Part shown: positions 12,459 to 61,763 of the stretch, in pieces | Layout: every line of letters begins with the position of its first letter | Numbering within the stretch: position 1 is the first letter of the stretch | NCBI GenBank assembly: GCA_001567115.1 | Contig: LMZT01000169.1 | Span: 46-64,045 of the forward strand | DNA from: Candidatus Hinthialibacteria bacterium OLB16 | GTDB taxonomy: Bacteria; Hinthialibacterota; Hinthialibacteria; OLB16 | Length of the DNA stretch: 64,000 nt | Reading direction: 5' to 3' | Position numbers and translations under genes: made by a program | The notes under the pieces: model-generated | What the model was told of the DNA's origin: nothing | Database searches by the model: none | The model's input: only the letters and a program-made list of their open reading frames with translations

Positions 12459-12470
12459 GGTCGTCCTCCT

Positions 12471-41140: not shown

Positions 41141-41973
41141 TTGTCACAGGTCAACAGGAGATCGTGCTTGCTGAGGTTGACCGGATTGTAGAAACAGTCG
41201 GCGGCAATGGCCAGCAGGTTATACAAATTCTCCAGGCGATACAGGAAAAATACCGCTATCTTCCCACAGAAGCGCTGGAGCGTGTTTGTGAGCTCACTGA
41301 TATATCACCGGCACGCATTGCAGGGGTTGCATCATTTTATTCCCAGTTCCGATTCAACCCGGTGGGGCTGCATCAGATCCGGGTGTGCCATGGAACTGCC
41401 TGCCATGTCAAAGGCTCAGCTCTGGTCCAGGATTCCATTGAACGGCACCTTGATATCGGAATGGACAGGGACACGACAACCGATGGCCTTTTCACAGTTG
41501 AAAAAGTTGCCTGTCTGGGATGCTGCACTCTTGCTCCGGTTGTTCAGATCGATGACCTTGTTTATGGGGGTCTGACACCCGACAAGGTTCCTGTAGTCAT
41601 CAGAAGCTTCCTGAATAATCCACAGCTGCGCAATGGCTCGGTTGAAACACAGGCAGATGATGAAGCAATCGAGAATGTTTTCGGTGAAATTCGGATCGGA
41701 CTGGGATCCTGCTGTGTTGCCAAAGGAAGCGACCGGTTGAAAACCGCGCTCGAAGATGCGATTCGAGAAACAGGCGCACGCGCTGTCGTCAAAAGGGTTG
41801 GCTGTGTGGGAATCTGCCATCAGACCCCACTCATCGAAGTGATTGCTCCCGACCAGACATCTCATCTCTATGCCGACCTCAAACCGACTGAAGCAAAGAA
41901 CCTTGTCGTCAAACATTTTCCCGAGGCGGTCGGTTTTCAAGAAAATCAGCCATTCTCTCAACCGTGTGCTTGA
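41137..41973 (+). CDS. NuoE-like [2Fe-2S] subunit fused to a thioredoxin-like [2Fe-2S] ferredoxin domain (HndA+HndB-like)
   Basis: NuoE motifs VCHGTACHVKGS ... CLGCCTLAPVVQID; second domain IGLGSCCVAKGS ... VGCVGICHQTPLIEV. The 3' end overlaps the next ORF in a different frame (possible fusion, see findings). Confidence 0.75.
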   Translation: MIVTGQQEIVLAEVDRIVETVGGNGQQVIQILQAIQEKYRYLPTEALERVCELTDISPARIAGVASFYSQFRFNPVGLHQIRVCHGTACHVKGSALVQDSIERHLDIGMDRDTTTDGLFTVEKVACLGCCTLAPVVQIDDLVYGGLTPDKVPVVIRSFLNNPQLRNGSVETQADDEAIENVFGEIRIGLGSCCVAKGSDRLKTALEDAIRETGARAVVKRVGCVGICHQTPLIEVIAPDQTSHLYADLKPTEAKNLVVKHFPEAVGFQENQPFSQPCA

Positions 41974-43507
41974 AAAAATATTCCAGGATGATGCCTGGGA
42001 ACCGGTTGACAGATTTTCCATTCATGTTCGTGATGAACCGGTTTCTGCCTTTCTGAGCCGCCAGATCCACATTGCGACAGAGCATGGAGGAACACTGAAT
42101 CCATTTGATCTCGAGGAGTACATCCACCACCAGGGATTCGCTGCACTTAGAAAGTGCCTTGAATCGTATACGCCCGCCCAGATCATCGACCAGATTGCTG
42201 AAAGCGGATTGAGAGGAAGAGGGGGCGCCGGTTTTCATTCAGCGACAAAGTGGCGAAAGGTCCGCGAATCTCCCGGAGAGATCAAATATGTCATCTGTAA
42301 TGGGGATGAGGGTGATCCAGGAGCATTCATGGACCGGATGCTGCTCGAATCCTTCCCGTTCCGTGTCATCGAAGGAATGATTATCGCGGCTTATGCTGTC
42401 GGCGCATCCGAGGCTATCTTCTATGTGCGTGCAGAATACCCGCTGGCTTTGAAAGTCCTCCGGCGAGCGCTGGCGCTTTGTGAAGGGAATGGTTATATCG
42501 GCGGCAATATCCTGGGGAGTGATTACTCAATTCATTTCCATATCGCCGAGGGAGCCGGAGCCTTTGTTTCCGGGGAAGAAACTGCACTGCTGGCATCAGT
42601 TGAAGGGAAGAGAAGCATCCCGAGAATCAGGCCGCCTTACCCTGCGGAAAAAGGGCTATGGGATCAGCCCACGCTCATCAACAATGTCGAAACATATTCC
42701 CTGGTGCCATGGATTCTGCGTGAAGGGGCTGAGTCCTTTGCAGCCCTTGGAACAGCCACCAGCAAAGGGACCAAAGTGTTTGCCCTTGCAGGAAAAGTGA
42801 AACGGGGTGGTTTGATCGAAGTGCCGATGGGGATCACCATCCGGGAGGTTGTTAATGAAATTGGTGGCGGTGTTGCAGATGGAAGGCAGTTCAAAGCGGT
42901 TCAGGTAGGTGGCCCGTCTGGCGGCTGTGTTCCTGCAGCACTTGCTGATACTCCCATAGATTTCGAAGCGCTCCAGTCAATCGGGGCCATCATGGGATCC
43001 GGTGGGCTGGTCGTTTTGGATGATACGGATTGCATGGTGGACATTTCCAGATACTTTCTGCAGTTCACTCAGAATGAGAGCTGTGGGAAATGCACACTGT
43101 GCCGCATTGGTTCCAAGCGGATGCTTGAAATTGTCACCCGTTTGTGTGAAGGGAAAGGGCGGCCACAGGATATAGGCATTCTCGAAGAGCTGTCTGCCGG
43201 AATGAAAGCGGCCAGCTTCTGTGGTCTGGGAAAAACCGCCCCCAATCCGGTCTTGACTTCGCTCCGTTATTTTCGTGAGGAATATCTTGCGCATGTGGAA
43301 GGCCGCTGCCCGGCCGGAAAATGCAAGGCATTGATCCGCTACAGGATTGAGGACCACTGTATTGGCTGCACAATCTGCGCACAGCACTGTCCAGTCGGTG
43401 CAATCCATTCAATCCCCTACCAGCTGCATACCATCGATGATTCACTCTGTGTGCGTTGCGACATGTGCCGTTCGGCCTGTCCCGAGAAAGCAGTCAAGGT
43501 GGTTTGA
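41843..43507 (+). CDS. NuoF-like NAD(P)H-binding flavoprotein subunit with C-terminal 2x[4Fe-4S] ferredoxin domain (HydB/HndC/StnB-like)
   Basis: SGLRGRGGAGF, FMN/NADH-binding GDEGDPGAF, ESCGKCTLCR 4Fe-4S, C-terminal CIGCTICAQHCP and CVRCDMCRSACP. The true start is uncertain: either GTG near 41957 or fused to the upstream gene through a T4 homopolymer frameshift at 41934-41937. Confidence 0.8.
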   Translation: MLPTRHLISMPTSNRLKQRTLSSNIFPRRSVFKKISHSLNRVLEKIFQDDAWEPVDRFSIHVRDEPVSAFLSRQIHIATEHGGTLNPFDLEEYIHHQGFAALRKCLESYTPAQIIDQIAESGLRGRGGAGFHSATKWRKVRESPGEIKYVICNGDEGDPGAFMDRMLLESFPFRVIEGMIIAAYAVGASEAIFYVRAEYPLALKVLRRALALCEGNGYIGGNILGSDYSIHFHIAEGAGAFVSGEETALLASVEGKRSIPRIRPPYPAEKGLWDQPTLINNVETYSLVPWILREGAESFAALGTATSKGTKVFALAGKVKRGGLIEVPMGITIREVVNEIGGGVADGRQFKAVQVGGPSGGCVPAALADTPIDFEALQSIGAIMGSGGLVVLDDTDCMVDISRYFLQFTQNESCGKCTLCRIGSKRMLEIVTRLCEGKGRPQDIGILEELSAGMKAASFCGLGKTAPNPVLTSLRYFREEYLAHVEGRCPAGKCKALIRYRIEDHCIGCTICAQHCPVGAIHSIPYQLHTIDDSLCVRCDMCRSACPEKAVKVV

Positions 43508-43510
43508 CCC

Positions 43511-45499
43511 ATGCCAGATATGGTTTCACTGATAATTGATGGCATACCGGTCCAGGTGGCCTCGGGAGAGACGATCCTCCAGGCTGCAGAGAAATCCGGC
43601 ATTCAAATCCCCACACTCTGCTTCATGGAAGGCCTTGCCGACCTGGAATCCTGCGGTGTGTGTGTGGTCGAAGTGGAGGGAAACCCAAATCTTCTTCCAT
43701 CCTGTGTATCGAGATGCCTGCCTGATATGAAAATCCGTACTGATTCCGAAAAGGTTCGAAAGGCCAGGAAGCTGGCACTCGAACTGTTGTTGTCGGACCA
43801 TCTCGGGGATTGCCAGGCGCCCTGTGAACTGGCCTGTCCTGCGGAAATTGACATCCCCGAGTTCATTCGGCAGATACGATACAACCATCCGGACAAAGCC
43901 CTGCGAGTTATTCTGGAAAAGATCGCCTTTCCGGGAGTTCTCGGCAGGATCTGTCCCAAGTTCTGTGAAGGTGTCTGTCGTCGTGGGGAATATGATGAGC
44001 CTGTTTCTATCTGCTCCCTGAAAAGATTTCCGGCAGACATCGTTCCACAGGATATTAAACAGCAGCAGCACTCTGCTGTTGTCAGGTCCGGAAAGAAAGT
44101 TGCAATCCTCGGTTCTGGTGTCGTTGGCCTGACTGCAGCCTATTATCTCACACTCGCCGGGCATGAGTGTATTGTCTTTGAGGCTGCACCGAGGCCTGGC
44201 GGGGCGATGAGGAATATCATTCCGGAATTTCGACTTCCCGCACAGGTGATTGATGATGAAATTGCGGACATTCAATCACTTGGTGTCAAGATTCACTGCA
44301 ACCAGGCCCTCGGAAAGGATGTTTTCCTGGATGACCTGCGAAATGAATATGATGCAATTCTGCTGGCTATTGGTGCAAATGGGGAAAAACATCCAACCTT
44401 CTCCGGTTCTGATCTGGGCCAATCGTGTTTCAACTTCCTCGAACAGGTTGCCTATGGTGCCTGCACATCGGTTGAGAAAAATGTAGTCATCATCGGCTCC
44501 GGGCCTACCTCTCTGGATTCTGCAAGAACATGCCTGCGGCTGGGAGCTGAAGAAGCCACCATGATAATCCCGTCTTCGCAGCGCACCCATTTCTTCTTTA
44601 CACCGCAACTGCAATACGCGCTTGAAGAAGGTGTCAAGATTCATTATGACAGTGAGATATTATCCACTGCCATCGGAGCAAACCGGCAGATTTCGTGTGA
44701 AGTGAATACCTCTGGAGATCGTTGGGTGATAACTGCGGACCAGATTTTCCTCTCCGGGCATGTCGAGGCTGATGTCCAGCTGCTGGAAGAACTCGGATTC
44801 AAAACCCTCCGGGGAGGAGTCCAGATTGATAAGAAGACCCTGGAAACAAATATCCCGGGGGTCTTTGCGGCCGGCAACATCGCCCAGTCCGGCCGGTATG
44901 CGGTCCATGGCTCGGCTTCAGGCCGGATTGTTGCCGAGTCTATTCATCGTTACCTCACTGGCATCCCGCCACAGCCCGAATGGATCAATGTTCGGATGCA
45001 GCATCTGACAGAGGATGAAAAGGAACTTCTGGGGAAAGACCGGCATGACATTTCACGATTGATGGATTTGATTCTTTCTCCTGAATTCCGTTCCCATAAT
45101 TTCGAGGAATTCAATCAGGGACTCACTACAGATGCAGCGATCAAGGAAGCGGCACGCTGCCTGAACTGTGATTGCGCCAGCAAAAGAGAGTGCTCACTTC
45201 GCATCCAGTCGACATTATGCGATGCAAATCCACGGGCATTTCGTGGAGACAGGCCGGCCTTTGAAAAAGATGATTCACACCCGGATATTGTTTATGAATC
45301 CGGCAAGTGCATCAAATGCGGGCGCTGCATTGCTATTGCGGAGCAGCACCGTGAAAAGTATGGCTTGACCTACATCGGCAGGGGATTTTCAGTCAAAGTG
45401 CAGACACCGATCATGGGAAAAATCGCCGAGGGCCTTTCTCTGGTTGCGATTGAATGTGCCAAGGCCTGTCCGACCGGAGCACTCTCCAGAAAGCGGTGA
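43511..45499 (+). CDS. Fusion of a NuoG-N-terminal-type [2Fe-2S]/[4Fe-4S] ferredoxin domain with a glutamate-synthase-small-subunit-like (GltD/NfnB) FAD/NAD(P)H oxidoreductase (StnA-like)
   Basis: N-terminus IDGIPVQVASGETILQAAEKSGIQIPTLCF ... CGVCVVEVEG; dinucleotide folds KKVAILGSGVVGLTAAYYL and VVIIGSGPTSLD; AGNIAQ; C-terminal Cys cluster CIKCGRC. Confidence 0.8.
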   Translation: MPDMVSLIIDGIPVQVASGETILQAAEKSGIQIPTLCFMEGLADLESCGVCVVEVEGNPNLLPSCVSRCLPDMKIRTDSEKVRKARKLALELLLSDHLGDCQAPCELACPAEIDIPEFIRQIRYNHPDKALRVILEKIAFPGVLGRICPKFCEGVCRRGEYDEPVSICSLKRFPADIVPQDIKQQQHSAVVRSGKKVAILGSGVVGLTAAYYLTLAGHECIVFEAAPRPGGAMRNIIPEFRLPAQVIDDEIADIQSLGVKIHCNQALGKDVFLDDLRNEYDAILLAIGANGEKHPTFSGSDLGQSCFNFLEQVAYGACTSVEKNVVIIGSGPTSLDSARTCLRLGAEEATMIIPSSQRTHFFFTPQLQYALEEGVKIHYDSEILSTAIGANRQISCEVNTSGDRWVITADQIFLSGHVEADVQLLEELGFKTLRGGVQIDKKTLETNIPGVFAAGNIAQSGRYAVHGSASGRIVAESIHRYLTGIPPQPEWINVRMQHLTEDEKELLGKDRHDISRLMDLILSPEFRSHNFEEFNQGLTTDAAIKEAARCLNCDCASKRECSLRIQSTLCDANPRAFRGDRPAFEKDDSHPDIVYESGKCIKCGRCIAIAEQHREKYGLTYIGRGFSVKVQTPIMGKIAEGLSLVAIECAKACPTGALSRKR

Positions 45500-45627: not shown

Positions 45628-47084
45628 TCAGCCCAGCCCCAGCCTTTGAATCTTTTTCAATAACCCCCGCCGGGTCAGCCCAAGCATCTCCGCTGCATGG
45701 GTTTTGTTTCCATTCGTTTCCTGCAGAGCTTTCCGAATCAGACGTTTTTCCAGGAGATTGGTGACCTCTCTGAGAGATGAGGAATCAGCTTCGAGGTCCG
45801 GAATGTATGGCGCTTTTCCTAAGGAAAGCAGAATTTTTCGAGAGACCAATTCTTCTGTAAGGATGGAGTCGTATTTCCCCAGGATGACCATCTGCTCAAT
45901 TTCATGTTTGAGCTGGCGGCAATTGCCAGGCCAGGAGTAATCAAGAAACATCCGCATGACCCTGGGGTGGATCTTTTTAGGCTCCAAACCCGCTTCCTTA
46001 ACCGCCTGATCCAGGAAATACTCCACCAGAATAGGGATCTCCTCAGGGCGTTCCTGGAGTGATGGAACTGTGATCGTCAACACACTCAGCCGGTAGAAGA
46101 GGTCCTCACGGAACTTTTCCTTCTGCGATCCAGCGTTCCAAATCCTGGTTGGTTGCAGCAATGATGCGCGCATCCACTTGAATGGTGCGTGTCCCACCCA
46201 CCCGTTCAAAAACGCCCCGATTCCAGAAACCTGAGCAGCTTGGCTTGTATGTTCATGGGGGCATCGCCGATCTCATCCAGAAGAAGAGTTCCCCCCTCAG
46301 CCATTTCGACCATCCCCTTCTTGATGGAGTTAGCCCCGGTAAATGCCCCTTTTTCATGGCCAAAGAGCTCGGATTCCATCAATGTTTCCGTCATGTTGGC
46401 ACAGTTCAAATCAATAAAGGGTTTGCTTTTCCGGCTCGAGTTTTCATGAAGAATTTCGGCAATCAGATTTTTTCCCGTGCCAGTCTCTCCCTGAATCAGC
46501 ACCGGAGCATCGTTATCGGAAAACAGTTCCAGACGGCGCCGGAGATCCTTCATCGCTTTCGATGCACAGATAAGGCGGTCGAAAGCAAACATCTGAGACA
46601 AGTTGCGTGTTTTCCCCGGTTCTAAAGCCAGCGGGACATTGAAAGTGCGGCCTGCGATATCCTCCACAAGCTCCATCACCGCAAAGATTTCCCCACTCTT
46701 ATCACGAAGTGGGATTGCCACAACCTCAAAATGCTTGAAGACAATGCCTTCCTGATTGCGGCTGGGAGCAACACGCCGGACTAATTTTCCGGTCTGGAAT
46801 GCAATTTTCGAGGCACACCAGGGGCAGACTTCCTCGCGTTGATCGTCATTCATATAGGCCTGAAAACAAAATGCCGCCGCCCGAGTTGGTCTATCCGGGA
46901 AAAATGACTGCTGGTGCTGGTTGACGTAGATAATCCGCATATCGCGGTTGACGATATTGATCCCGAAGGGGAGTGCATCTAAAGCGGACAGCGCAAAATC
47001 CTGCACTGAGAAAGGGAGTAAGTCCTCCACAATCCGCTCACCATTAGAGCCGGTCAGACTGGTGATAGATTTCTTTGTCGACAT
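45628..47084 (-). pseudogene. Sigma-54-dependent transcriptional activator (PAS sensor, AAA+ and Fis-type HTH), interrupted by two 1-nt homopolymer insertions near 46208-46212 and 46115-46118
   Basis: ORFs 46206-47084 and 45628-46209. A third frame between them reads [31 protein letters not shown], the conserved sigma54-interaction region. Walker A GETGTGK, GAFTGA motif, ESELFGHEKGAFTGA, C-terminal AAEMLGLTRRGL HTH. Confidence 0.85.
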
Positions 47085-47286
47085 AGGCGGCCAATCGTTT
47101 TCTAGTGTGAATGACAGTTCTCATCCAGGAAAAGCAGATGTGAACGAAGTATCGAGGTGGAACCTTTACGTCCACTCTGATGAATATGAGTGGATGGGCT
47201 TCTACCAGTTTCTTTTTGTGCGGCGGGCCGCTTCAGAAGGGCTTTTGGGTTGTAAATCCAGATATTCACGGAACACTGGTCTCACT

Positions 47287-47302
47287 TGGCCTGGTCTTTG
47301 CT
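47287..47302 (+). promoter_or_regulatory. Candidate sigma-54 (-24/-12) promoter TGGCCT-N5-TTGCT upstream of the prepilin-like/LamG genes
   Basis: tTGGCCtggtcTTTGCt matches the TGGCAC-N5-TTGCW consensus with correct GG to GC spacing. It lies about 100 bp upstream of the 47401 ATG and is divergent from the sigma54 activator gene. Confidence 0.55.
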
Positions 47303-47400
47303 CACATGGTCTGCTGAGCGAATCTGATATGAATAATGTACCTGATTAGCTGAAGCAAGGCAACGAGTCCAGCGGGTCAGAGGGTAAAAAGGAGGACTGA

Positions 47401-48036
47401 ATGCGGCTCAACCAGGGGTTTACCTTGATAGAACTTTTGATTGTTATCGCGATCATTCTAATTTTGATTTCTATTGCCCTTCCCAACTTTCTTGAGGCGC
47501 AACTCAGGGCAAAGGTGACTAAAGCGATGGGAGAAATGAAATCTCTCTCGATTGCGGTTGAAGCCTATGCTTCGGACCGATCCAACAGCAACAGACCCTA
47601 CCTTTTCGGTGAATTTGTTCAGGATAGGCCAATGTACCGGTGGACCTATGGTTATGCCCCTGATTCACTGACAACACCAGTCGCCTACATCAAGATCCAT
47701 CCAGAAGATCCTTTTAATCATGGGGAATTCAGCATATATGGCGGACAGCAGCTCAATTATCCAGCGGGCCATCTGCACCGGCATTACCGCATCGCTCCTC
47801 GAACTCCCTATACAGGTTTCAATTCGGCCTGGACGGAAGATAGCTGGCGAACCTATCTATGGCCAATGATGACCAAGCAATGGGGGGCGTTTCAGTCGAA
47901 TTATATTCTGGTCAGTGTCGGTCCGGATAAGGTGGAAGATATCATTCCAGCCTACCACCCTCTGGTCTACTCCCCTACCAATGGGACAAAAAGTCTCGGA
48001 GATATCGGTATCCATTCCGGCGGCATTGGAAGATAA
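47401..48036 (+). CDS. Prepilin-type N-terminal cleavage/methylation domain protein (paralog of 27285-27995)
   Basis: MRLNQGFTLIELLIVIAIILILISIALPNFLEAQ; C-terminal YSPTNGTKSLGD motif; RBS aaaggagg. Confidence 0.8.
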   Translation: MRLNQGFTLIELLIVIAIILILISIALPNFLEAQLRAKVTKAMGEMKSLSIAVEAYASDRSNSNRPYLFGEFVQDRPMYRWTYGYAPDSLTTPVAYIKIHPEDPFNHGEFSIYGGQQLNYPAGHLHRHYRIAPRTPYTGFNSAWTEDSWRTYLWPMMTKQWGAFQSNYILVSVGPDKVEDIIPAYHPLVYSPTNGTKSLGDIGIHSGGIGR

Positions 48037-48120
48037 ATCTTTAATTTAAACAAGTTTTCAGGCTGTAACGTGCCTTTGTGCTGAGGGCATGCCGAATCGA
48101 ATAGAAGGAGGCTAAAGACA

Positions 48121-49614
48121 ATGTACCGTAGTTTTCTTATTGTGGCTCTGTTGGCAGGACTGGGTGGGCTGGCATTTTCCCAGAATACAACTGATTGGAC
48201 TCAACCTTACGAGGCAGATGCAGGCGCTGTGGATTTATACCATTTCTACGATGGCGCACTCGGCGGGGAACAGGAAATTGTCGACTATGCGGCCCCATAT
48301 TTATGGGGTTGGACTCATAATGGCACGGGAGCCGCACCGCTTCATGTGCCCTCGATGCCTGGATTTGGGGAGTGTATTCAATTGGATGGAATCGATGACC
48401 GTGGTGAGTTTCCTCCCGATGGGGGCGGCGCTCACAATGTGTACTCAAACGACCTTTCTGTTGAAGCCTGGATCAATCCTGTAAACCTTTCCGGAATCCA
48501 CAGGATTGTACATATGCACGGTACAGTCAGTTTCTATAGCGATGGGTCCAACCTGGTTATGTGGCTGTTTGGCAATGATGGGGGAAATATGTGGTTCCCG
48601 GCTACCACCAACAACCCGCTGACTGCAGGAGAGTGGAGCCATGTCGCCGGGACATACCATTACAACGGCGACGGGACTGCGGTCGCCAAGTTTTATGTGA
48701 ATGGCAGCCTCGAGGGAACTCAAAATCTTTCCAGCGGTGCTTTGCCATTAGGCAATGCGCGCAACACCAACTGGCAGATGCTGGGCAGCACCTCCTGGGG
48801 AAGCGAGTATTTCGAAGGGAAAATGGATGAAGTCCGGATCTCCAATGTGGTGCGTGAATATGTCCCGTTAAATCCACCCAATCTGACTGACTGGACCAAA
48901 CCTTTCGATCCTGATGCCGATACTGTTTTCCTGTTTCATACCGAGTTGGATAACGGAAATCCTCAGTTTGTTGTTAATTCAGGCCCCAGTCAGTGGGGGG
49001 CATGGGCAGACCCCATCACAAATGACTCCCATGGAAGCCAACGGTTTGCAACAGAAGTCCCTTCTCCGGAATTTGTGACCAGCATCTACTCTTCAGGGAA
49101 TTCCACTTCATGGCCAAGATGGCATGCGCTTGTGAATGATGTCTTTGCAATTACTCCGCTGGAGAACCAGCTCACGCTCGAAGCCTGGATTCGTCCCGAT
49201 TCAGTTCAAGCCTCAGGTGATGTCATTCAACGAATTATCAGCTGCAACAACTGTTATTTTCTTTACCTGTTCAATAATGAAATCGAGGTTTGGTTGAAGT
49301 ATTCCGATAATACCGATGCTGCGTTTCGGACAACCGGTGCCAATGTCCCGGCAGGGGTCTGGAGCCATCTGGTGGCGCAATGGAATGGCGCCGAACAAAC
49401 TCTGAGTATTTTCATGAATGGCCAGCTGCTGGGATCAGTAGAAGTTCCTGACAAACCGAACCTGAGAACGCCCACAAACACCGACTGGCTGGTGATGTGT
49501 TCTCCACCCTGGAACGCTGAATTGTTTGCCGGCTATATCGATGAAGTTCGCATTTCCAAGGTGGCTCGGTATGAGGATAATGTGACCTCTGTCAGTAACT
49601 GGGATTTGTACTAA
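48121..49614 (+). CDS. Secreted protein with two tandem LamG/concanavalin-A-like lectin domains
   Basis: Signal peptide; internal duplication, each half ending ...SEYFEGKMDEVRISNVVREY / ...AELFAGYIDEVRISKVARYE (the LamG F-x-G-x-hDEVRIS signature). Confidence 0.75.
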   Translation: MYRSFLIVALLAGLGGLAFSQNTTDWTQPYEADAGAVDLYHFYDGALGGEQEIVDYAAPYLWGWTHNGTGAAPLHVPSMPGFGECIQLDGIDDRGEFPPDGGGAHNVYSNDLSVEAWINPVNLSGIHRIVHMHGTVSFYSDGSNLVMWLFGNDGGNMWFPATTNNPLTAGEWSHVAGTYHYNGDGTAVAKFYVNGSLEGTQNLSSGALPLGNARNTNWQMLGSTSWGSEYFEGKMDEVRISNVVREYVPLNPPNLTDWTKPFDPDADTVFLFHTELDNGNPQFVVNSGPSQWGAWADPITNDSHGSQRFATEVPSPEFVTSIYSSGNSTSWPRWHALVNDVFAITPLENQLTLEAWIRPDSVQASGDVIQRIISCNNCYFLYLFNNEIEVWLKYSDNTDAAFRTTGANVPAGVWSHLVAQWNGAEQTLSIFMNGQLLGSVEVPDKPNLRTPTNTDWLVMCSPPWNAELFAGYIDEVRISKVARYEDNVTSVSNWDLY

Positions 49615-49720
49615 CCCGTGGCTGACTGAAAGCAGTCTTTACAGTATCCATAGTGAGATGAATCGTACCCCAGCGGCATGTTGACCGGATTCGGCACATG
49701 CGCTGGGAAACAAGAAATCA

Positions 49721-49737
49721 ATGACGCTATGCGTCAT
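49721..49737. promoter_or_regulatory. Perfect 7-3-7 palindrome ATGACGC-tat-GCGTCAT about 35 bp upstream of the ribokinase start; candidate operator
   Basis: Read directly from the sequence. Confidence 0.35.
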
Positions 49738-49769
49738 GGCAGGGCACAAAAGATTGAGTCGTCAGACAA

Positions 49770-50750
49770 ATGACTACCAGAACAACTACACCTTCCATAA
49801 TTGTGACCGGCTCGGCCAACCTGGATTTCTGTGTCTCCGTTCCACGTTTACCCCAACGTGGTGAGACCTTGATTGGTGAAGACATGCATACCTTTTTCGG
49901 TGGAAAGGGGGCCAATCAAGCCATCGCAGCAGCACGTCTGGGGGGTGATGTCGGATTCATCGCCAAATTAGGTGATGATGCTTTCGGAGCTCAGTACCTT
50001 CGCCATCTCAGGCACGAAGGAATCGATACCTCCTGTGTCTCTTTCGCTCAAAACTGTCCGACTGGCACAGCCCAGATCATAGTCGAAGAGCTCGGACAAA
50101 ATATGATCGTGGTTTCTCCCTCCGCAAACATGCGGATCAGCCTCTCAGATCTGCATCAGGCGGAACACATTATCGCTGCAGCTGGAATTCTGCTGCTTCA
50201 AATGGAAATCCCTCAGGAGATTGTCGAAGGTGCCATCAGAATCGCCAACCGGCAGGGTGTTCAGGTCATACTGAATCCCTCCCCTGTTGATTCACGGTTC
50301 CAATTCAAAGGGCTTGAGATTGATTACCTGGTGGTCAATGTTGTGGAAGCGGAAACCATTACCGGAATTACCTGCCGGGATCTGCAGACGCTCAGTGAAG
50401 CAGCGGAGTGTCTGGTATCCATGGGTGCTCGAAATGTGGTGATCACACGCGGGCGAGAGAGCACACTGGTCGATTGCCATGATACGATTGAGTTCGTTCC
50501 AACTATCCATGTGGACTCAGTGGATGCTGTTGGTGCAGGAGACACATTTGCGGGGGCATTGGCGGTTGCGCTTACTGAGAAAATGGACATTATTTCGGCG
50601 GTCCGGTTTGCCAACTGTGCCGGGGCTCTCGCCACCACCCGCCTCGGTGCTCAGGCTGCAATGCCCTTCCGGGCAGAGGTTGAAGAATGCCTGACTTCTA
50701 ACCTTGATATGGCAGAAAAGACAAAGAGCCGAATGAGCCGTTACACTTGA
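49770..50750 (+). CDS. rbsK: Ribokinase (PfkB family)
   Basis: GGKGANQAIAAARLG and DAVGAGDTFAGAL motifs; TGSANLDF N-terminal. Confidence 0.8.
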   Translation: MTTRTTTPSIIVTGSANLDFCVSVPRLPQRGETLIGEDMHTFFGGKGANQAIAAARLGGDVGFIAKLGDDAFGAQYLRHLRHEGIDTSCVSFAQNCPTGTAQIIVEELGQNMIVVSPSANMRISLSDLHQAEHIIAAAGILLLQMEIPQEIVEGAIRIANRQGVQVILNPSPVDSRFQFKGLEIDYLVVNVVEAETITGITCRDLQTLSEAAECLVSMGARNVVITRGRESTLVDCHDTIEFVPTIHVDSVDAVGAGDTFAGALAVALTEKMDIISAVRFANCAGALATTRLGAQAAMPFRAEVEECLTSNLDMAEKTKSRMSRYT

Positions 50751-50865: not shown

Positions 50866-53853
50866 ATGAAAAGTTTCGTTTATCAGGTGCTGGACAGGCT
50901 CCTGATGCCATGTTTTCTGTTTGCTTGTTTTTGCTGTATCACTCTGGCAGCCGGAGCAATGGAGACCATGAACAATAGAATGGATTCGGCTCTGCTGTTC
51001 GAGACCGAGCTCGACCCCGTTTATCTCAGGTGGATTATGGGCCCTGGTGAGTTGCGAGGCTTCTGGTTTGCCCATCCTTGTGAAGAGACGAAAGAGCGTA
51101 CTGGCGCCAACACCTTCTCCTCACACATAAGTCTTCACCTCCTGGAGGATCCTGAAAGTCCGGACGGCTTCCGGATCGAATCACCCTTTGTTCCATCCCA
51201 TTCCACTGTGGAGATGGGCTTCCATTCCGGCAGGCCGATGGCAGAGGTTCGTATCTTGATCAGCACCGCTTTCGAAGGAGCGGCAGGAAAGGCTGAACTC
51301 TATCGGATTGAAGAAGATCAAAAGCGGATATTTGCGGGATCCAGCGAGCAGGTGAATGCGCGGAAAGACAGCTGGGGTAATCGTCAAACCTGAGGGGCAT
51401 AACCAGAATTTCCCGGCCGGCCAGTATGTTCTCAAGGTTGCATCACGGCGGATGCGGGTGGAAGTCTGGCCTGGCCCATCGGCCAGCCCTGAGACCTGGA
51501 TCGGATTTCCTGATGAAAGTGAGAAACCGCACCAGCAGCAGACTGCACTCCTTGCCACTGTTTCTTATGTTGATGGAACTGCCAGCCAACTCCGCAAAGA
51601 TGAAGAACAAAGGCCATGGCTCTCACTCGGAAGCCATGATCCTGGCTCCGAAGCCGAGGAGGCCAGGATGTTTTTCAACATCGATCTCGGAGAACACAAC
51701 AATCCCTTCTTCATCTACTATCCACCTTCTTTCCAGGCTGCCTTCCCCAATGCCTTCATGCAGGATATTGATGGAAATCGGATCAAAATTGACTCGAACC
51801 CCATCGGTGAAGTCGAAAACCCTGTGCCGGCGGTAGATGATCCGGATTTGCGCAGACTCTCAAAGAAGCTCATAAAACAGGGCGTGGAGTCTTTACGAGG
51901 ATCCCCATGGCTTCGTTACTATGTGATCGCGGGTGAGGAATGCTATCCCGACTACTTTGGAATGCTTCCGGTGGGTGACTTTCGAAAGGCATTCACCGAT
52001 CGTTTTAATCTCTATTCCCACCAGGAGAAATGGGGGCTGGCTTTTGACCGGGAGGCATTTCGTGCCGATCCCGATGGGCCTCTCGGAAAGGCATGGTACC
52101 TTTTTCGGGAACATGCCATGGCCGACCGTGCGGCCGACTACATGCACACATTTCTGGAGAACGACTCGGAGCATCCAGTTTTCTACCCGACTCATGGGAA
52201 TCCCTTTTTCGGCCTGGGCCAAAGCGGGAGAAAACAGTTGGGATATTCGCCCGGATTGATTGCGGGAGCCTGTGATGGTTTTGAGACCGGCCAAATCTCG
52301 ATTGACACGGATGTGGAATTTCTGAATCTGCTGACACTTTCCCATAACACCTCCTGGGGTGTTCCTGTGGTTTCACCACGTCTTGGAAATAAAACACTGG
52401 ATCCATCTGCTCGAGGAGGCGGAAGAAGCTTCACCCCTACTATGCTTCGCCGCCTCTTCTATGAAGCCATTGGGCATGGTGTCTGGCATGCCGGCCTCCT
52501 GCAGTGGACCGGGGTATTGGGAGATGGTGAGTGGTTCATCAGGGACACTCCGGCTGAACAGGAAGCGCTTCAAGTTTTCAAAGAGGTTGAGTCTGCTTCG
52601 CCATATTTGACAGGAATGAGCCGACTGCAATCCAGAGTTGGCCTGTATATCTCCGATAGCACCTGGATTCATAAGGGCTGGCAGGCCCGTTGGACAGGTT
52701 TTTACCAGGATGCCCTCTGGGACCATTGGCAAATTGCGTTGGTGGGTGACCAGCTGCTTGGTGAGGAACTCGCTTCGAAAATCCCGGTACTCGTTTCTCT
52801 CGATAATACATTGATCGATTCGCAGGCTATTCAAAGACTCAAGGAATACAAGAAGGCTGGAGGTTGCCTCATTCGCTGGGGCGAATTTGGGCAAGCAGAT
52901 GAACTGGGGACTCCATTCGAGGGAGATCCGTTTAAGGATGCCCATGGTGTGGTGGATGTCCAATCTCCCCCTGATGAATCTCAGAGGGAGCTGATGAATG
53001 CCTGCACTACAGGATTGGGAGCGCACAAACATGTCACTCGATATCAGGCAGCTCCTTTTGTGGCCATAAAAGAAGCCATTCTTTCCAGAGTTCCGGAATC
53101 TTATCTGTGCCCAGTAAAAATTGAGGCAGCCGGCCGGATTCATGCCTACACCCTGACCGATGGCTGGAATCTGGTGACGGTTCTTGTGAACCACGAAAGC
53201 CAATCGACAGCTCCGGAGGAAGTCCAAGAAACTGGCATTGGAAACAGATCGGTGTGCCTTCAGAGGCTTCAGGCAAACCCAAACCGGGAACCGCAACTCT
53301 GACTCTGAAGGGAGCCGGCAGTGCTCTGATATGGATGACTCCCGGCGCTGTCCCTGCCGATATTGGAAAGCAGCTCAAATTAAGCCGGGAAATCCTCGAT
53401 CGCTGGGTTGAATGGGGAGTGGATGTGGAAACATACCGAGCCTGTTTAAGTGAAGCAGATACAGCCCGATCTGCTGGCCTCGATGCGAAAGCTCATGCCC
53501 TGTCTGCACGGATTGTGAATGGCCTGGGAATTAATGCGAGTCTTGTTGAAAATGCCTCTGGTGTCTCAAAAATCCGTGCTTCAGTTTTTGATTCATCCGG
53601 AAAGCCAGTTTCGGGAGCCTCCGTCATTTGCCGTCTGGTTCCAGGAAAATTCCACTGGCTCTCCCTCGAGGAGCCTGCACCCGGAATCTACGAGGGAGAG
53701 ATTACGAAGGAGAACCTTCCGGATTTATACAATCCTGGCAAGGGATGCTATGAACCTTACTCCGGTCCGCTAAGGCTGATTGTTCATTCCAGTCAGGGTG
53801 GGCAGGATGGCTTCTGCCTCCGGACCCTCTCATTGGAGAAGAGGATTCCCTGA
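50866..53853 (+). pseudogene. Large (about 990 aa) secreted glycoside-hydrolase-like protein with GH42-type (GATase1-like) middle domain, apparently split into three ORFs by homopolymer indels
   Basis: ORFs 50866-51393, 51356-53302 and 53254-53853 overlap head to tail in different frames, with no RBS or starts at the junctions (G/A runs near 51364-51377 and the A3 run at 53242-53244). N-terminal signal peptide; VLVSLDNTLIDSQAIQRLKEYKKAGGCLI resembles the beta-galactosidase trimerisation domain. Confidence 0.45.
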
Positions 53854-53859
53854 TTCCCC

Positions 53860-55887
53860 ATGCGGAGGCCATTAAAGATTCTCATTACCTTGGGTGCACT
53901 GGCTCTGATCCCAATCATGGTGGAGCGCACAGGGGAAAAGGTTAAAGCCTATCCGGGAGCCTCCAGTGCTCATGCAGAACTTGAACGCGGCCTGGATTTC
54001 CTGATGACCGGCAAGAATATCCCGATGGATTTTTTGAGCGCCATCGAGAAATTTTCCCAGGTTGCCCCTGAACATGGAGCGACATCACTCGAGGCTGAAA
54101 TCGCTGAATTTCTCTCTGCCTGGTGTATCTGGGCTGATCCATCTTCTGACAACAAACGCAAAGAGATGGCCCTATCGGATTTTCAATTGAAATATCCGGA
54201 TTCCCCTTTTCTTGCCCATGCCCTTTTCATGCGTGCCCTTATTGAATCCACGTCGATACCACAAACAGGGCCGGATACCGCAATATCCACGTATAAAAAG
54301 ATCGTCCAGGATTATCCCGACAGCACCCTTGCGGACCTTTCAAGGCTGGCTCTGGCCGGGCTCCATCGGGAGCAGGTGCATGATCTTCGCGAGTCAGCCC
54401 GCTGGTATGGGGAAGTGGTAAGGAGTGGAACGGACACTTTTCTGCTTCATGAGATCGAGCTTTTTCATTACCTCCAGGCGAAAATGCTGCAAGAGGCTGG
54501 CGATGCTGATGAGGCCCGCAGGATATACCATGCCATTCTGGAATCTGAGAAAAAATCAGCGGGAAACTGGAAAGACCGCGCCCTCGATCGTCTTGCTGAG
54601 CTAGGAGAAAAAGTGCAGGACGAATCCTGGGGAGAGGTCCAGCAGACCTCTTTCCCCATGCAAAATCATTCCTTTAGTTCCGACAAGCCGATCACCCTTC
54701 GTATCAGCTCCTGGATTCTCGAAAAGAAAGGGATGCTTGAAGCCTTTACACAGATCGGAGAGAAATACCACGAACACAACCCGGATGTGACGATTGAATG
54801 GATCAGCCTGCCTTATACGGGATACCACGACTGGCTGCAGACTCAGATTCTAAGCGACGAAATTCCCGACATCGTGCAAATTGATAATGGAACTGCAGTT
54901 CGGTATGGAGCTTATCAAGGGAAGCTGGTGGACATCTCCCCCTACCTGGAAAAGCCCAACAACTATACCGGTGTCCGTTGGGCAGAGATGTTCTGGCCAC
55001 AATTCCTGATCGAGGCCCGCGATCCGGTCAAAAGGAGAAACTGGGTCGTGTCATGGGCCTCTGAGAACAGCGCGTTCATTTATAATAAGGATGCTTTTCG
55101 AAAAGCTGGTCTCATCAAACGTGATAACTCCGGGAATGCTGTCAGAGACAGTTCGGGAAAAGAGGTGGTGGATGAACCTGAAACCTGGGCTGACCTGATT
55201 ACCGCCTTTCAGAAACTCGAACAGTCTGGTTATTATGGAGAGGTCTGCAATTTCCATCCCGACCCGGCCCCCTTGATCTGGCAAATGCCTTACATCACCA
55301 AGCAGATTTACGACAACCTGATCCCCAAACTGGATGTGATTGTTCCGGATGACTCTCCGGATGTGTTCGAGATTGCCAAATGCCTGCTGGATGGAACTCT
55401 GGATCTCCGTGATGGCGAAGTATCCGAACTCTGGCGCCTCCTCTATGAAAAGAGCGAATATTGGGTGCCTGGTTCCACAGCCATGGATATCCGGGATGCC
55501 TTCAATGATTTTCTACGGGGCAAGGCGGCCACTCTTCATTGGGTTTCAACAGACCTCGCGGATTTTGAAGACAAGGCTGACTTTGAACTGGGTGTCTTTC
55601 CTTTTCCTTCCCTGGAAGGGACTCCTTATTTTGATGGGCTTTATAATGAGACTCCCAGCCTGAGAGCATTCGAGTTTTCGATTCCACGGGTTACCGAATC
55701 ACGGAACACATTGCCTGCTGCGATGGATTTCCTTATGTACCTGACATCCCCGGAGGCTCAAAGGGTCATGGTAGACAAAGGAAACACCATTCCCCCTATC
55801 CGTGGAATCCAGCCCTCCAGGCGTCTTGAGCCCTTCATGCGGGCCATCGGCAGACGCGGAACTCATACCACTTTCTTTAATCCTTAA
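53860..55887 (+). CDS. ABC transporter extracellular solute-binding protein (carbohydrate, family 1) with an about 250-aa N-terminal TPR-like helical extension
   Basis: Signal peptide; the SBP core begins ITLRISSWILEKKGMLEAFTQIGEKYHEHNPDVTIEWISLPYTGYHDWLQ. Confidence 0.7.
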   Translation: MRRPLKILITLGALALIPIMVERTGEKVKAYPGASSAHAELERGLDFLMTGKNIPMDFLSAIEKFSQVAPEHGATSLEAEIAEFLSAWCIWADPSSDNKRKEMALSDFQLKYPDSPFLAHALFMRALIESTSIPQTGPDTAISTYKKIVQDYPDSTLADLSRLALAGLHREQVHDLRESARWYGEVVRSGTDTFLLHEIELFHYLQAKMLQEAGDADEARRIYHAILESEKKSAGNWKDRALDRLAELGEKVQDESWGEVQQTSFPMQNHSFSSDKPITLRISSWILEKKGMLEAFTQIGEKYHEHNPDVTIEWISLPYTGYHDWLQTQILSDEIPDIVQIDNGTAVRYGAYQGKLVDISPYLEKPNNYTGVRWAEMFWPQFLIEARDPVKRRNWVVSWASENSAFIYNKDAFRKAGLIKRDNSGNAVRDSSGKEVVDEPETWADLITAFQKLEQSGYYGEVCNFHPDPAPLIWQMPYITKQIYDNLIPKLDVIVPDDSPDVFEIAKCLLDGTLDLRDGEVSELWRLLYEKSEYWVPGSTAMDIRDAFNDFLRGKAATLHWVSTDLADFEDKADFELGVFPFPSLEGTPYFDGLYNETPSLRAFEFSIPRVTESRNTLPAAMDFLMYLTSPEAQRVMVDKGNTIPPIRGIQPSRRLEPFMRAIGRRGTHTTFFNP

Positions 55888-55915
55888 TGAGATCGGGATC
55901 GTGAAAGAACCTTGA

Positions 55916-57310
55916 TTGGGCCCGAAGGGCGGAACAAAAGTGACTTGGATGAGCTCAACCAGCCTTCTCGGATCCATTCCCAACTACACTTATTTCAGAA
56001 GCGCTACAGGTGGCACTCGAGAGGTTTATCAGGACTGGCGGAAAGAGAGATTGCAGGAATTCCTCGACAATCTCCAGAAATACTTTGTATGGGCATATGG
56101 GCGTGCGGTTCGTGAATATGCCGAAGACCTCCATGCTGAAATCAGGCGGCACAATCATGACTGGATCGGCCTGTTCCGCAGCACATGGATGCAGGAAACT
56201 CCACCGGATCCGGGAAACGCTCTGGCAGCTTTTGAAGATATCTGGCGGACACTTAACGATCAATATTCGATGATCCTCCTTTGCCAGCGGGTAACAGGCT
56301 CCCATCTTGGTTCTTTTGATGTTGAGTCTCCACCCATCCCGTACCGGACACTGAAAAACATTCAGCGTTTTTTCATTCTTCTGATCGCCTCGATTTTCAG
56401 CCTGGGCCTGGTCGTGATGATCTGGCGGGGAACACTGGATGCGCTTTTAAAGGATGGAAGGGTTCTCTCGGTTTTCCTTCCCACAGTGCTGCTGCTCGGA
56501 ACCTTCTGCTACTTCCCGGCGGGATCCGCTATCTATCACGCCTTTTTCAAGTGGAATGGAGCGGACATTTCCGAGTTCATCGGACCTCAGAATTTCCGGA
56601 ACCTTTTGGCAGATGGGGTCTTATCTGGATCTTTCGCCATCATGGGGGTGTTTCTCATCGCCAGTATCCTGAAACTGACTCCAACCATCGTTGTAGCAGT
56701 TGTGCTCTTCCATTTGGCAAGCAGAACTCTTCAGTACTGGTTCCGGGTTGCTTTTGTCCTGCCGCTCATCATTCCATCGATCGTCGGGATGCTTGTGTGG
56801 AAGTATTTCTACAAGATGGATGGAGGAGTGCTGAATGCCTTGCTCCTGCGCCTCGATGTCATCCAGGTTCCTGTCAACTGGCTCGGCTCCGAAAATACAG
56901 TGGTTCCAGCACTCCTCTTTATCGGGTTTCCATTCGTTTCCACCATCGGGGTCTTGATATTGATGGCGGGCTTGCAGGCGATTCCGGGATCTGTTTTCGA
57001 GGCAGCAGAGCTGGATGGCTGTGGGGCTGTCCGTCGTTTCTGGCTGATCGAGATGCCGTTGATTATGGGGCAGGTCAAACTCAACCTCGTATTGACTACA
57101 ATCGGCACCCTTCAGGAATTCGCCCTGCCATTGATTCTGACACGTGGAGGACCCAATAACGCCTCGATGCTCCCTGGTTTATGGATGTATCTGAATGCCT
57201 TTTCCTATGGAAAGATGGGCTATGCGTCAGCCTTGGGTGTCGTGATGTTCCTTATTATTCTCGGGTTCACACTTGTGAATATGAAGGTGGCAAAAAGCCA
57301 TGTCGATTAA
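55916..57310 (+). CDS. Carbohydrate ABC transporter permease (MalF/UgpA-type) with an about 150-aa N-terminal cytoplasmic extension
   Basis: EAAELDG signature loop, 6 TM helices. Confidence 0.75.
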   Translation: MGPKGGTKVTWMSSTSLLGSIPNYTYFRSATGGTREVYQDWRKERLQEFLDNLQKYFVWAYGRAVREYAEDLHAEIRRHNHDWIGLFRSTWMQETPPDPGNALAAFEDIWRTLNDQYSMILLCQRVTGSHLGSFDVESPPIPYRTLKNIQRFFILLIASIFSLGLVVMIWRGTLDALLKDGRVLSVFLPTVLLLGTFCYFPAGSAIYHAFFKWNGADISEFIGPQNFRNLLADGVLSGSFAIMGVFLIASILKLTPTIVVAVVLFHLASRTLQYWFRVAFVLPLIIPSIVGMLVWKYFYKMDGGVLNALLLRLDVIQVPVNWLGSENTVVPALLFIGFPFVSTIGVLILMAGLQAIPGSVFEAAELDGCGAVRRFWLIEMPLIMGQVKLNLVLTTIGTLQEFALPLILTRGGPNNASMLPGLWMYLNAFSYGKMGYASALGVVMFLIILGFTLVNMKVAKSHVD

Positions 57311-58193
57311 TGGCCCCACATCCGCTCCCATGGAGATGCTCAAAACCAGTGTGCTCCTGTTGGTCTGCCTGTTTATCCTCTTCCCGGTCTACCTGATGCT
57401 GGTGATCAGTGTAAAGGACAACACCCAGTTTCTCGAAGCTCCATTTGTCCCGACCTGGCCGTTTCATTACGAAAATTATGTTACCGCCTGGGAATATGTT
57501 GGCCCCTATATTCTGCGGACCTTGTTCGTGGCGGTGGTTTCGACCTTCTGGGCAGTCTTCCTGGGATCCCTCTGCGCTTTTGTCCTTGCACAGTATGAGT
57601 TCGTTGCCAGAAAATTGATCTTCACATTTGTCGTCGCATTGATGATGATTCCCGGCATCCTTAACCTGATACCCCTTTATGTGCTGGTGGTACACATGGA
57701 CCAGGGGGTGCGTGAACTTGGAAGGTGCCTTTCTGGCTGGACCGGGTGGGGAGAAGATATCCGATTTCTGAATACTGTCTGGGTTCTGATCATTCCTGCT
57801 GCTGCAGGCGGACAAGTCATGCTGGTTTACGTTTTACGGACCTTCTTCCAGTCACAACCCCGCTCTTTATTTGAGTCCGCGCAGTTAGATGGCGCAGGCC
57901 TTTTTCAGATTTATTATCACATAGCCCTGCCCCTGGCACGCCCCATCATTGGCACCATGGCCATCATTAATGCGGTTGCTCTCTGGAATGACTACATCTG
58001 GCCCTTGGTTGTCCTGCAGCGCGATCACTACACACTGTCTGTCGGTTTGAAATACATGGAAAGCTTGAATCTCATTCAGTATGGGCCACTGATGGCGGGT
58101 TATCTGATTGCCAGTATTCCGCTCGTGATTCTCTTCTTTTTCTCGATGCGGCTTTTCATCGAAGGACTGGCCAGCGGGGCTATCAAAATGTAA
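57300..58193 (+). CDS. Carbohydrate ABC transporter permease (MalG/UgpE-type)
   Basis: ESAQLDGAG signature; about 20-aa insertion (HMDQGVRELGRCLSGWTGWGEDIRF) between TM helices. Confidence 0.75.
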   Translation: MSINGPTSAPMEMLKTSVLLLVCLFILFPVYLMLVISVKDNTQFLEAPFVPTWPFHYENYVTAWEYVGPYILRTLFVAVVSTFWAVFLGSLCAFVLAQYEFVARKLIFTFVVALMMIPGILNLIPLYVLVVHMDQGVRELGRCLSGWTGWGEDIRFLNTVWVLIIPAAAGGQVMLVYVLRTFFQSQPRSLFESAQLDGAGLFQIYYHIALPLARPIIGTMAIINAVALWNDYIWPLVVLQRDHYTLSVGLKYMESLNLIQYGPLMAGYLIASIPLVILFFFSMRLFIEGLASGAIKM

Positions 58194-58207
58194 GGAGGAT
58201 TTTTCAA

Positions 58208-59161
58208 TTGTCTACACTTATCATAGATGTCGACACTGCATTGGGAATTGAGGGAGGAGATATCGATGACGCCCTGATGATCGCTTATCTGGCGGGTCAA
58301 TCGAATTGGGCTGGTCTGGCTGGAATTTCTGTTGTTGCAGGAAATGTATCGCTCAGTTCAGGCGTCAAATCGACACTTTATATTTGCGATCTCCTCGGCC
58401 TCGATGTCCCTGTTTTCCCCGGAGCAGCGGCTCCAGCAGATCGGCCGTTGAAGACTGGACACTCCCTCGTCATGGGTAATGCAAACAGTGACGAGAAATG
58501 GATTTTCAGCCACAACCCGGTTCGAGAACCTGAGATAATGAGCTTTTGCGAATGGGTTGGCCACCGGGATCCATCCTTCCGTTTCACCCTCCTTGCTACC
58601 GGCCCCATGACGAATGTCGCAGATCTCCTGCTGAAAAATCCTTCATGTAAATACCAGATTGAACAGATTGTTTCGATGGGAGGGTGGTTTTTTGGTGAGG
58701 AGCGCCATCCAGAGTTCAATATGATGGTCGATCCCCCCGCTGTCTCCACTGTGTTTCAGAGTGGCATTCCCCTGACCATAGTCCCCCTGGAAATGACTCT
58801 TAAGACATGCCTGATGCCCGATGATATCGTTCAATGGCTGAACTATGGGGAGGTTGGACAGGCTTTCCATGATGGAACTCTGTCATGGATGAGTCAGATG
58901 AAATCCATTCGCGGCCAGGAGGGCTGCCACCTGCATGACCCCCTGGCAGCGGTCGCCCTGCTGCATCCAGAGATCATAGAAACTGTTGGCATCATCCCTT
59001 CGATTGATCTGGAGACCGGGAAAACGGATGTTCTATCGGAAGATCCCCACAGTGTAGTAAGAGTGGTCCGGAGTTTTGACAACGCTAAATTCCAGGAACT
59101 TCTGCTGAAGGGAATTGGTGTTGCGTTCGAGACAGCTTCCAGGCCAGCTCTCCTGGAGTGA
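58208..59161 (+). CDS. Nucleoside hydrolase (IU-NH family)
   Basis: N-terminal IIDVDTALGIEGGDIDDALMIAY (the DxDxxxDD Ca-binding motif); TGPMTNVA. Confidence 0.8.
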   Translation: MSTLIIDVDTALGIEGGDIDDALMIAYLAGQSNWAGLAGISVVAGNVSLSSGVKSTLYICDLLGLDVPVFPGAAAPADRPLKTGHSLVMGNANSDEKWIFSHNPVREPEIMSFCEWVGHRDPSFRFTLLATGPMTNVADLLLKNPSCKYQIEQIVSMGGWFFGEERHPEFNMMVDPPAVSTVFQSGIPLTIVPLEMTLKTCLMPDDIVQWLNYGEVGQAFHDGTLSWMSQMKSIRGQEGCHLHDPLAAVALLHPEIIETVGIIPSIDLETGKTDVLSEDPHSVVRVVRSFDNAKFQELLLKGIGVAFETASRPALLE

Positions 59162-61714: not shown

Positions 61715-61763
61715 ACCGACAGGTTTGCCTGGCATGCCTGTTTAATTGAGAAAGGAGGTTTTT

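Follow-up and report, generated by a model that had tools for sequence, protein, structure and literature searches.

A probable sigma-54 promoter between a divergent PAS-domain activator gene and prepilin-like and LamG genes in Candidatus Hinthialibacteria bacterium OLB16

How is a prepilin-like gene controlled when it stands back to back with the gene of a sigma-54 enhancer-binding protein (EBP), and which genes belong to the same unit? This question is raised by a stretch of 64,000 nucleotides (nt) from Candidatus Hinthialibacteria bacterium OLB16 (contig LMZT01000169.1; the whole stretch is referred to here as the window), in which a first-pass annotation had placed a near-consensus sigma-54 promoter between a divergent activator gene and the genes of a prepilin-like and a secreted tandem-LamG protein (Table 1). 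Our comparison indicates that the element at 47286-47302 is very probably a sigma-54 (RpoN) -24/-12 promoter that is controlled by the divergently encoded EBP and drives the pilin-like and LamG genes: conservation at orthologous loci lends this core of the annotation strong support. We compared the window with the same-species assemblies L004 (GCA_016706995.1), L085 and L086 (98.7-99.0% identity), with the close lineages L003 and L106 from the OLB16-phylum relatives, which together with the window provide a three-lineage alignment, and with the distant EBP orthologues L099, L101, L102 and L104 (43-61% identity), whose intergenic regions are unalignable. The EBPs of L003 and L106 are 86-87% identical to the same-species copy (tblastn or BLASTP), the pilins of L003 and the window share 82% identity, and all three lineages share the gene order EBP, divergently pilin-like, LamG, ribokinase, gene for a protein of ~1000 amino acids (aa) and solute-binding protein. 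In the literature we found nothing on this locus, on sigma-54 in OLB16 or on a prepilin combined with LamG in bacteria.

The sigma-54 consensus is TGGCAC-N5-TTGCW, in which the -24 GG and the -12 GC lie exactly 10 nt apart, and transcription usually starts 11-13 nt downstream of the -12 GC. On the plus strand, TGGCCTGGTCTTTGCT at 47287-47302 exhibits this GG-N10-GC spacing and ends 98 nt 5' of the ATG at 47401, as had been claimed with a distance of ~100 bp; it reads TGGCCT-GGTCT-TTGCT, with two mismatches relative to the consensus, neither of which falls in the GG or the TTGC. In the window, L003 and L106 the TTGGC and TTGCT ends are invariant within largely diverged intergenic DNA, whilst the 7-nt spacer between them varies (CTGGTCT, CTGGTCC and TTCGAAC): invariant ends around a variable spacer are the pattern expected of a -24/-12 element. 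The motif is thus kept in both close lineages, and analogous sites are present in L099, L101, L102 and L104, all of them oriented towards the divergent operon; the sites of L099, L101 and L104 are strong (chance probability per region of 0.004-0.027) and that of L102 is weaker (0.15). As a null, 900 control windows of 320 nt were scored, with 0.7% reaching at least 18.5 and 0.1% at least 19; the score of the window promoter was reached by 0.1% of them. Scored regardless of activator linkage, the upstream regions of 45 pilin-like paralogues in other genomes showed no enrichment, with 0 of 45 reaching 18, and thus sigma-54 control appears to track the EBP-linked orthologues and not the pilin family overall. 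A divergent GAFTGA activator adjoins in every orthologue having that side of the locus. Within the putative operon, no positionally conserved internal sigma-54 site was found.

The activator itself carries the domains expected of an EBP: Pfam models identify PAS_4, the AAA+ domain (PF00158, E = 6e-47), the AAA lid (PF25601) and a Fis-type helix-turn-helix (HTH; PF02954, HTH_8), and both the Walker A motif (GETGTGKN) and GAFTGA are readable, the latter being conserved among the orthologues. At the N-terminus no Pfam Response_reg match was obtained, PAS_4 being found instead, and no histidine kinase gene adjoins the activator in the window, L003, L106 or L102. The PAS_4 domain of the orthologues P0121-P0128 exhibits an invariant C72 and C86-P-W-C89, which suggests sensing of a metal, an Fe-S cluster or redox state. 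The AlphaFold2 (AF2) model of the activator has a predicted local distance difference test (pLDDT) score of 62, with the cysteine region below 50, and clustering of the cysteines is unreadable from so weak a model.

If the EBP acts at this promoter, where would it bind? The annotation had pointed to the inverted repeat GTGGA-N9-TCCAC in the intergenic region. This repeat is present at 47157-47175 and is extended by a perfect 7-nt repeat, TCCACTC-N10-GAGTGGA, at 47171-47194; it is one of 16 short inverted repeats in 361 nt and is not conserved in L003 and L106, and we rejected it as the activator site. In its place the three-lineage alignment offers two conserved boxes (Table 1), and the activator most likely binds these TGTGAAC-containing sequences, as predicted from the following observations. 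TGTGAAC/GTTCACA is the 7-mer most widely shared among the independent upstream regions, against an expectation of 0.011-0.026 per region: its distance upstream of the -24 element is 90-148 nt across the window/L003/L106, L099, L101 (where it occurs twice, forming an inverted pair) and L102, and 90-127 nt when L099, L101 and L102 are taken alone. In the 64-kb window, TGTGAACG has its single occurrence in box 2. Box 1 takes the form of a near-palindrome in L106 (GTGAAT-N4-GTTCAC), and its position 21-39 nt upstream of the activator's own ATG makes autoregulation plausible, rendering this box a candidate for both activator binding and autoregulation. The 7-mer was not found in the L104 upstream region; the HTH reads RKGLLNK in the EBPs of L104 and L105 versus RRGLLKK in the others, and in L104 the altered HTH together with the missing 7-mer fits a co-variation of protein and site. 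L105 offers no divergent upstream region for comparison.

Table 1. Features of the activator/prepilin-like/LamG locus and of the compared loci. Positions refer to the window unless another locus is named.
Feature	Position	Strand	Basis or remark
Activator (EBP) gene	45628..47084	-	Pfam; tblastn vs L003 orthologue
Frameshift site 2	46112..46116	-	T4 vs T3 in L085, L086, L004
Frameshift site 1	46204..46208	-	A5 vs A4 in L004, L085, L086; 292-aa open reading frame ends ...LESGRF
Shared intergenic region, 316 nt	47085-47400		Between activator and prepilin-type gene
Conserved box 1, GTGTGAATGACAGTTCTCA	47105..47123		Imperfect palindrome GTGAAT-N4-GTTC(T/A)C; invariant core, three-lineage alignment
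Conserved box 2, TGTGAACGAAGTATC	47139..47153		Candidate upstream activating sequence, ~148 nt upstream of -24 TGG; L003/L106 alignments
Inverted repeats of the first-pass annotation	47157..47194		GTGGA-N9-TCCAC and TCCACTC-N10-GAGTGGA; region diverged in L003, L106
Sigma-54-type promoter, TTGGCCTGGTCTTTGCT	47286..47302	+	-24 GG 47288-47289, -12 GC 47300-47301
Predicted transcription start	47312..47314	+	Inferred from sigma-54 promoter geometry
Conserved box in predicted 5' untranslated region, TATGAATAATGTACCTGATT	47328..47347	+	Almost invariant in window, L003, L106
Ribosome-binding site AAGGAGG	47389..47395	+	5 nt before ATG
Prepilin-type gene, 211 aa	47401..48036	+	Pfam N_methyl
Secreted tandem-LamG gene, 497 aa	48121..49614	+	Laminin_G_3
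Structured spacer after LamG gene	49615..49769	+	GC-rich hairpins
Ribokinase	49770..50750	+	TIGR02152, 316 bits vs cut-off 299.65; PfkB
~1000-aa secreted protein gene	50866..53853	+	Three open reading frames: +1 insertion 51374, 16-nt deletion 53210
Solute-binding protein containing tetratricopeptide repeats (TPR), two ATP-binding cassette (ABC) permeases, IU_nuc_hydro (ribonucleoside hydrolase family)	53860..59161	+	Pfam/NCBIfam
-24/-12-like site, TGGCATGCTGCTGGCT	L099:351-366		
-24/-12-like site, TGGCACACGATCTGCT	L101:370-385	-	
-24/-12-like site, TGGTATGGCAGTTGCT	L104:1421-1436	-	
-24/-12-like site, TGGCACAGTTTTTGTG	L102:7823-7838	-	Weaker
Proteins with shared C-terminal tail	49585-49614; LamG genes of L003, L106, L102; L088:1262-2374; L095:1057-2112; L100:1-138		

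Several observations weigh against this interpretation. The window activator is split by two uncompensated +1 homopolymer insertions, near 46208 and 46115, and the L004 activator is also frameshifted, by a different 1-nt insertion ~9 nt from site 2. TTGT replaces TTGC in the L102 site, which is only weakly significant. In the window, TGGC-N7-TTGCW occurs once against 1.9 occurrences expected by chance and is hence no rarer than chance, and looser sigma-54-like matches are not enriched either (80 seen vs 98 expected), so that the significance of the motif rests on its position and its conservation. An rpoN gene is absent from the window and the fetched loci (107 sequences, searched with Pfam and an RpoN-box pattern). 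Finally, the conserved box at 47328-47347, downstream of the predicted start, holds an AATAAT/AATACT -10-like hexamer, with which a weak sigma-70 start is possible.

The frameshifts bear on the part of the annotation that had described a single PAS-containing EBP transcribed divergently from 47084: domains, strand and ATG stand, and the single reading frame does not. Using the intact 483-aa L003 orthologue, tblastn returned three high-scoring segment pairs in three frames of the window: the gene is spread over 46206-47084 (PAS and the first part of AAA+), a short middle frame, and 45628-46209 (AAA lid and HTH_8). In addition, a compensated pair of frameshifts (46871/46888) replaces QLGRRI by PTRAAAF just N-terminal of C72 (46820-46880 region). 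The activator is intact in L003, L085 and L086 (483 aa each), in L106 and in the cluster P0121 (63 contigs), and the split in the window may be either an assembly error or recent decay of the gene; if the frameshifts are real and not introduced by assembly, this strain would lack a working switch.

The alternative that the circuit is genuine in the species and dead in this particular strain, with the activator a recent pseudogene, the strictly activator-dependent promoter silent and the operon starting to decay, is in our view a real possibility that nevertheless falls short of an even chance. It draws on the clustering of the lesions, given that 4 of the 7 window-unique indel events in the 10.5 kb compared lie inside the 1.46-kb activator gene and that L085, L086 and L004 are without all of them, the activator insertions included. 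It also draws on the 1000-aa gene of the operon, which exhibits a +1 insertion and, compared with L001 and L004, has lost 16 nt, a deletion that is not an error of the homopolymer type, and on a Logan contig from run SRR29904083 with the identical split into 292 and 181 aa, although this contig is possibly not independent of the source data of the window. However, every single-base indel is a change in homopolymer length, other genes of the window are split too (that of a GH95 protein at a T6 run, and a phosphodiesterase gene), and L004 has unique homopolymer indels of its own: recurrence across genes and in L004 is a pattern typical of long-read consensus error. Furthermore, the density of window-unique substitutions in the activator (2.1 per kb) is the lowest among the genes compared, and the pilin and LamG proteins are still 98.6-99.5% identical to those of other strains. 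Given the frameshifts, the signal-dependent control proposed earlier may be lost in this strain, or the assembly may be at fault. The split genes of the window are located at 5956-8300 (GH95 fucosidase-like, T6 run near 7155), 21086-23379 (type I phosphodiesterase) and 50866-53853; such splits suggest that the assembly contains homopolymer consensus errors or that gene decay is widespread.

A second alternative leaves the activator aside and holds that TTGGC-N7-TTGCT is the binding site of another protein, with the pilin-like gene transcribed from a sigma-70-type start such as the hexamer at 47332-47337. The strongly conserved 20-nt box downstream of the motif, which carries this -10-like hexamer at its 5' end, speaks for it, as do the chance-level motif count in the window and the absence of rpoN from the sequences searched. 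We nonetheless judge this alternative improbable: conservation falls exactly on the -24 and -12 elements and variation on the spacer; unrelated intergenic regions beside distant activator orthologues display this bipartite motif, spaced identically; no conserved -35 element exists, and a scan of 47085-47400 for sigma-70-like promoters found none; and a dedicated GAFTGA activator is always adjacent. That the motif is a functionless chance match is hardly credible, for while a chance-level count in the window (one match, 1.9 expected) would allow it, conservation through the diverged intergenic region in three lineages, independent recurrence in four more orthologous contexts and control windows that almost never score as high already contradict it.

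Returning to the favoured reading, that of a sigma-54 promoter under the divergent EBP, the locus would operate as follows: sigma-54 RNA polymerase would bind the promoter at 47286-47302 as a closed complex, which would be opened by the divergently encoded single-component EBP (PAS with a cysteine cluster, AAA+ with GAFTGA, Fis-type HTH) docked on the two TGTGAAC-containing boxes that lie ~150-185 nt upstream (47105-47123 and 47139-47153). Transcription would begin near 47313 and yield a message for the prepilin-type and the secreted tandem-LamG proteins, and the hairpins after the LamG gene may restrict read-through to the downstream genes (ribokinase, 1000-aa protein, ABC transporter and nucleoside hydrolase). 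Genes of these downstream kinds are found directly under the same type of promoter at other orthologous loci.

As to the leader, the box at 47328-47347 opens in L003 and L106 with GTGTGAAT, as does upstream box 1, and CCTGATTGAG is also present in the L104 leader. A riboswitch or leader RNA in the 5' untranslated region was considered and rejected: there was no Rfam match, folding was no better than that of shuffled sequences (z = 0.06) and the two-sequence consensus was weak.

What does the promoter serve? The gene at 47401 encodes, as annotated, a prepilin-type protein with a canonical leader (MRLNQG|FTLIE, Pfam N_methyl): the class III signal peptide MRLNQG|FTLIELLIVIAIIL exhibits G at -1, F at +1 and E at +5, and both PF07963 and TIGR02532 score above their cut-offs. 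The N-terminal helix is most similar to PilA of Geobacter and Myxococcus, is also GspG-like, and matches pilin N-termini in the PDB, and the protein belongs to a well-conserved subfamily. For the C-terminal domain no solved relative was found, and it is unrelated to solved pilins; the AF2 model (mean pLDDT 65.7) predicts a helix at residues 9-58 and a poorly defined head domain, and a Foldseek search of this low-confidence model against the PDB gave no match with E < 0.001. Among the window open reading frames scanned there was no prepilin peptidase and no assembly ATPase or platform gene. Scanning the genome collection with the full pilin alignment returned only distant paralogues, via the generic FTLIELLIV pattern, and a metagenome scan with the C-terminal part returned two same-species loci, nine full- or near-full-length paralogues (42-45% identity), none of which had an adjacent activator or LamG match, and two short fragments. 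The window holds a second prepilin-like gene at 27285-28040 (minus strand), which shares an identical N-terminal helix, GFTLIELLIVIAIILILISIALPNFLEAQ, with the 47401 gene; upstream of it (to ~28110) lies a sigma-70-like TTGACA-N18-TAAATT and no sigma-54-like site.

The LamG gene follows at 48121-49614, again as annotated, and its product combines an N-terminus resembling a signal peptide with two Laminin_G_3 stretches (PF13385, E = 4.7e-47) and an internal repeat (TDWTQPYEADAGAV / TDWTKPFDPDADTV); its C-terminal tail is conserved as ...VxxVxNWDLY. Secreted proteins encoded beside pilin-like genes share a tail of the form ...V(S/T)xVxxxW(D/E/N)L(Y/F/R)-stop, for example NVTSVSNWDLY and SVTGVATGINSWELF. 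The protein family of L088 and L095 has no detectable similarity to the LamG protein besides this tail, and among 1365 long open reading frames a W[DE]L[YFR] ending occurs in 10, 10/10 of which encode secreted proteins beside pilin-like genes. The tail may be a sorting or docking signal.

How far would the unit extend? The LamG-ribokinase spacer forms hairpins in three lineages (window 49615-49769, L003:10213-10340, L106:6350-6495; z = -2.5 to -2.7), the spacer sequences not being homologous to one another, and these hairpins are possibly a terminator, an attenuator or a processing site. With such strong hairpins after the LamG gene, the primary unit may comprise the pilin-like and LamG genes, with read-through beyond. 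The ~1000-aa protein has no sequence match in Pfam, NCBIfam or the PDB. The kinds of genes linked to EBP and pilin recur at orthologous loci in shuffled order: ribokinase, pilin and IU_nuc_hydro in L098; EBP and, divergently, pilin and IU_nuc_hydro in L099; a protein ending ...NWDAY, pilin and a homologue of the 1000-aa protein in L100; EBP and, divergently, sulfatase, IU_nuc_hydro and two successive LamG genes in L102; and EBP and, divergently, IU_nuc_hydro in L104. A sugar-type ABC transporter is part of the set in the window, L003 and L106. Thus the idea of a pseudopilin/adhesin-like surface module needs to be widened: pilin and LamG are indeed there, but the nucleoside hydrolase, ribokinase and 1000-aa genes recur as well, indicating a conserved unit broader than an adhesin module.

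With respect to the surroundings, CRISPR-Cas genes of type I, namely cas5 and a cas3 that encodes HD and helicase domains, start directly after the operon at 59474-62477. Upstream of the activator, 37745-45499 holds ferredoxin-like, NuoE-like, NuoF-like and GltD-like genes (2Fe-2S and FAD/NAD oxidoreductase), a cluster that resembles an electron-bifurcating NADH-dependent complex. Further upstream, 10266-13019 (minus strand) contains the gene of a sigma-70 family factor of the extracytoplasmic function type (12471-13019) followed by that of a large vWF_A/VWA/YfbK_C-domain protein (10266-12458), possibly a sigma/anti-sigma-like pair.

Is this a known system? Single-component sigma-54 activators encoded divergently from their target operon are exemplified by NorR-norVW and PrpR-prpBCDE in enterobacteria and by XylR/DmpR in Pseudomonas. 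The OLB16 locus shares with them a sensory domain in place of a receiver, AAA+ with GAFTGA and a Fis-type HTH, an activator gene divergent from a -24/-12 promoter, and candidate sites 100-200 nt upstream that overlap the activator's own upstream region. In contrast to these systems, the OLB16 activator has a PAS_4 sensor domain in which C72 and C86-P-W-C89 are invariant, the targets are prepilin-type, LamG, nucleoside hydrolase and ribokinase genes, and the host is an uncultured OLB16/Hinthialibacterota bacterium. The NCBIfam models for PrdR, AtoC, NtrC and NorR match only the AAA+/HTH part, far under their equivalog cut-offs.

Pilin genes are under PilS-PilR/RpoN-type control in Geobacter sulfurreducens (pilA; PMC2725144), under PilRX-RpoN2 in Xanthomonas oryzae (PMC7170775), under sigma-54/PilR in Myxococcus (PMC6211767) and under Npa-RpoN (pilE) in commensal Neisseria (PMC6528607). 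Common to these and to OLB16 is a prepilin-leader gene that follows a -24/-12 promoter and has its own NtrC-family activator encoded nearby, and the affinity of the N-terminal helix to Geobacter and Myxococcus PilA is a further likeness. However, the OLB16 locus is not a PilS-PilR system, because its activator carries a PAS and not a receiver domain, no histidine kinase is adjacent and no pilus assembly genes lie nearby; it also differs in the C-terminal domain, which is unrelated to solved pilins, and in that the gene is accompanied by LamG, nucleoside hydrolase and ribokinase genes instead of pil genes. Similarly, the prepilin leader (G|F...E) and N-terminal helix recall GspG of the type II secretion system (TIGR01710, E = 1.2e-9, residues 5-60), but this match comprises the N-terminal helix only, at 38 bits versus a cut-off of 88.85, and the gene has no gsp neighbours.

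In its regulatory logic the circuit is textbook, a known layout in a new locus. As a more speculative proposal, which we consider unlikely, the OLB16 regulon would couple a surface capture or secretion device, built from the pseudopilin-like protein and LamG proteins with the W(D/E)L(Y/F) tail, to the uptake and catabolism of ribose-containing substrates (nucleosides, nucleic-acid debris) through the ABC transporter, ribonucleoside hydrolase and ribokinase, and would be switched on by a cysteine-cluster PAS sensor that is possibly redox- or metal-responsive; if true, such a regulon would be previously undescribed. Independently of this, the locus provides a concrete regulatory circuit, with a putative promoter, TGTGAAC as candidate motif and a sensor, in OLB16/Hinthialibacterota, a phylum without cultured members. 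Moreover, one subfamily of the very abundant orphan prepilin-like genes in these bacteria is tied to a set of LamG, nucleoside hydrolase and ribokinase genes that in the closest lineages also includes an ABC transporter, and this linkage offers a starting point for learning the role of these pilin-like proteins.

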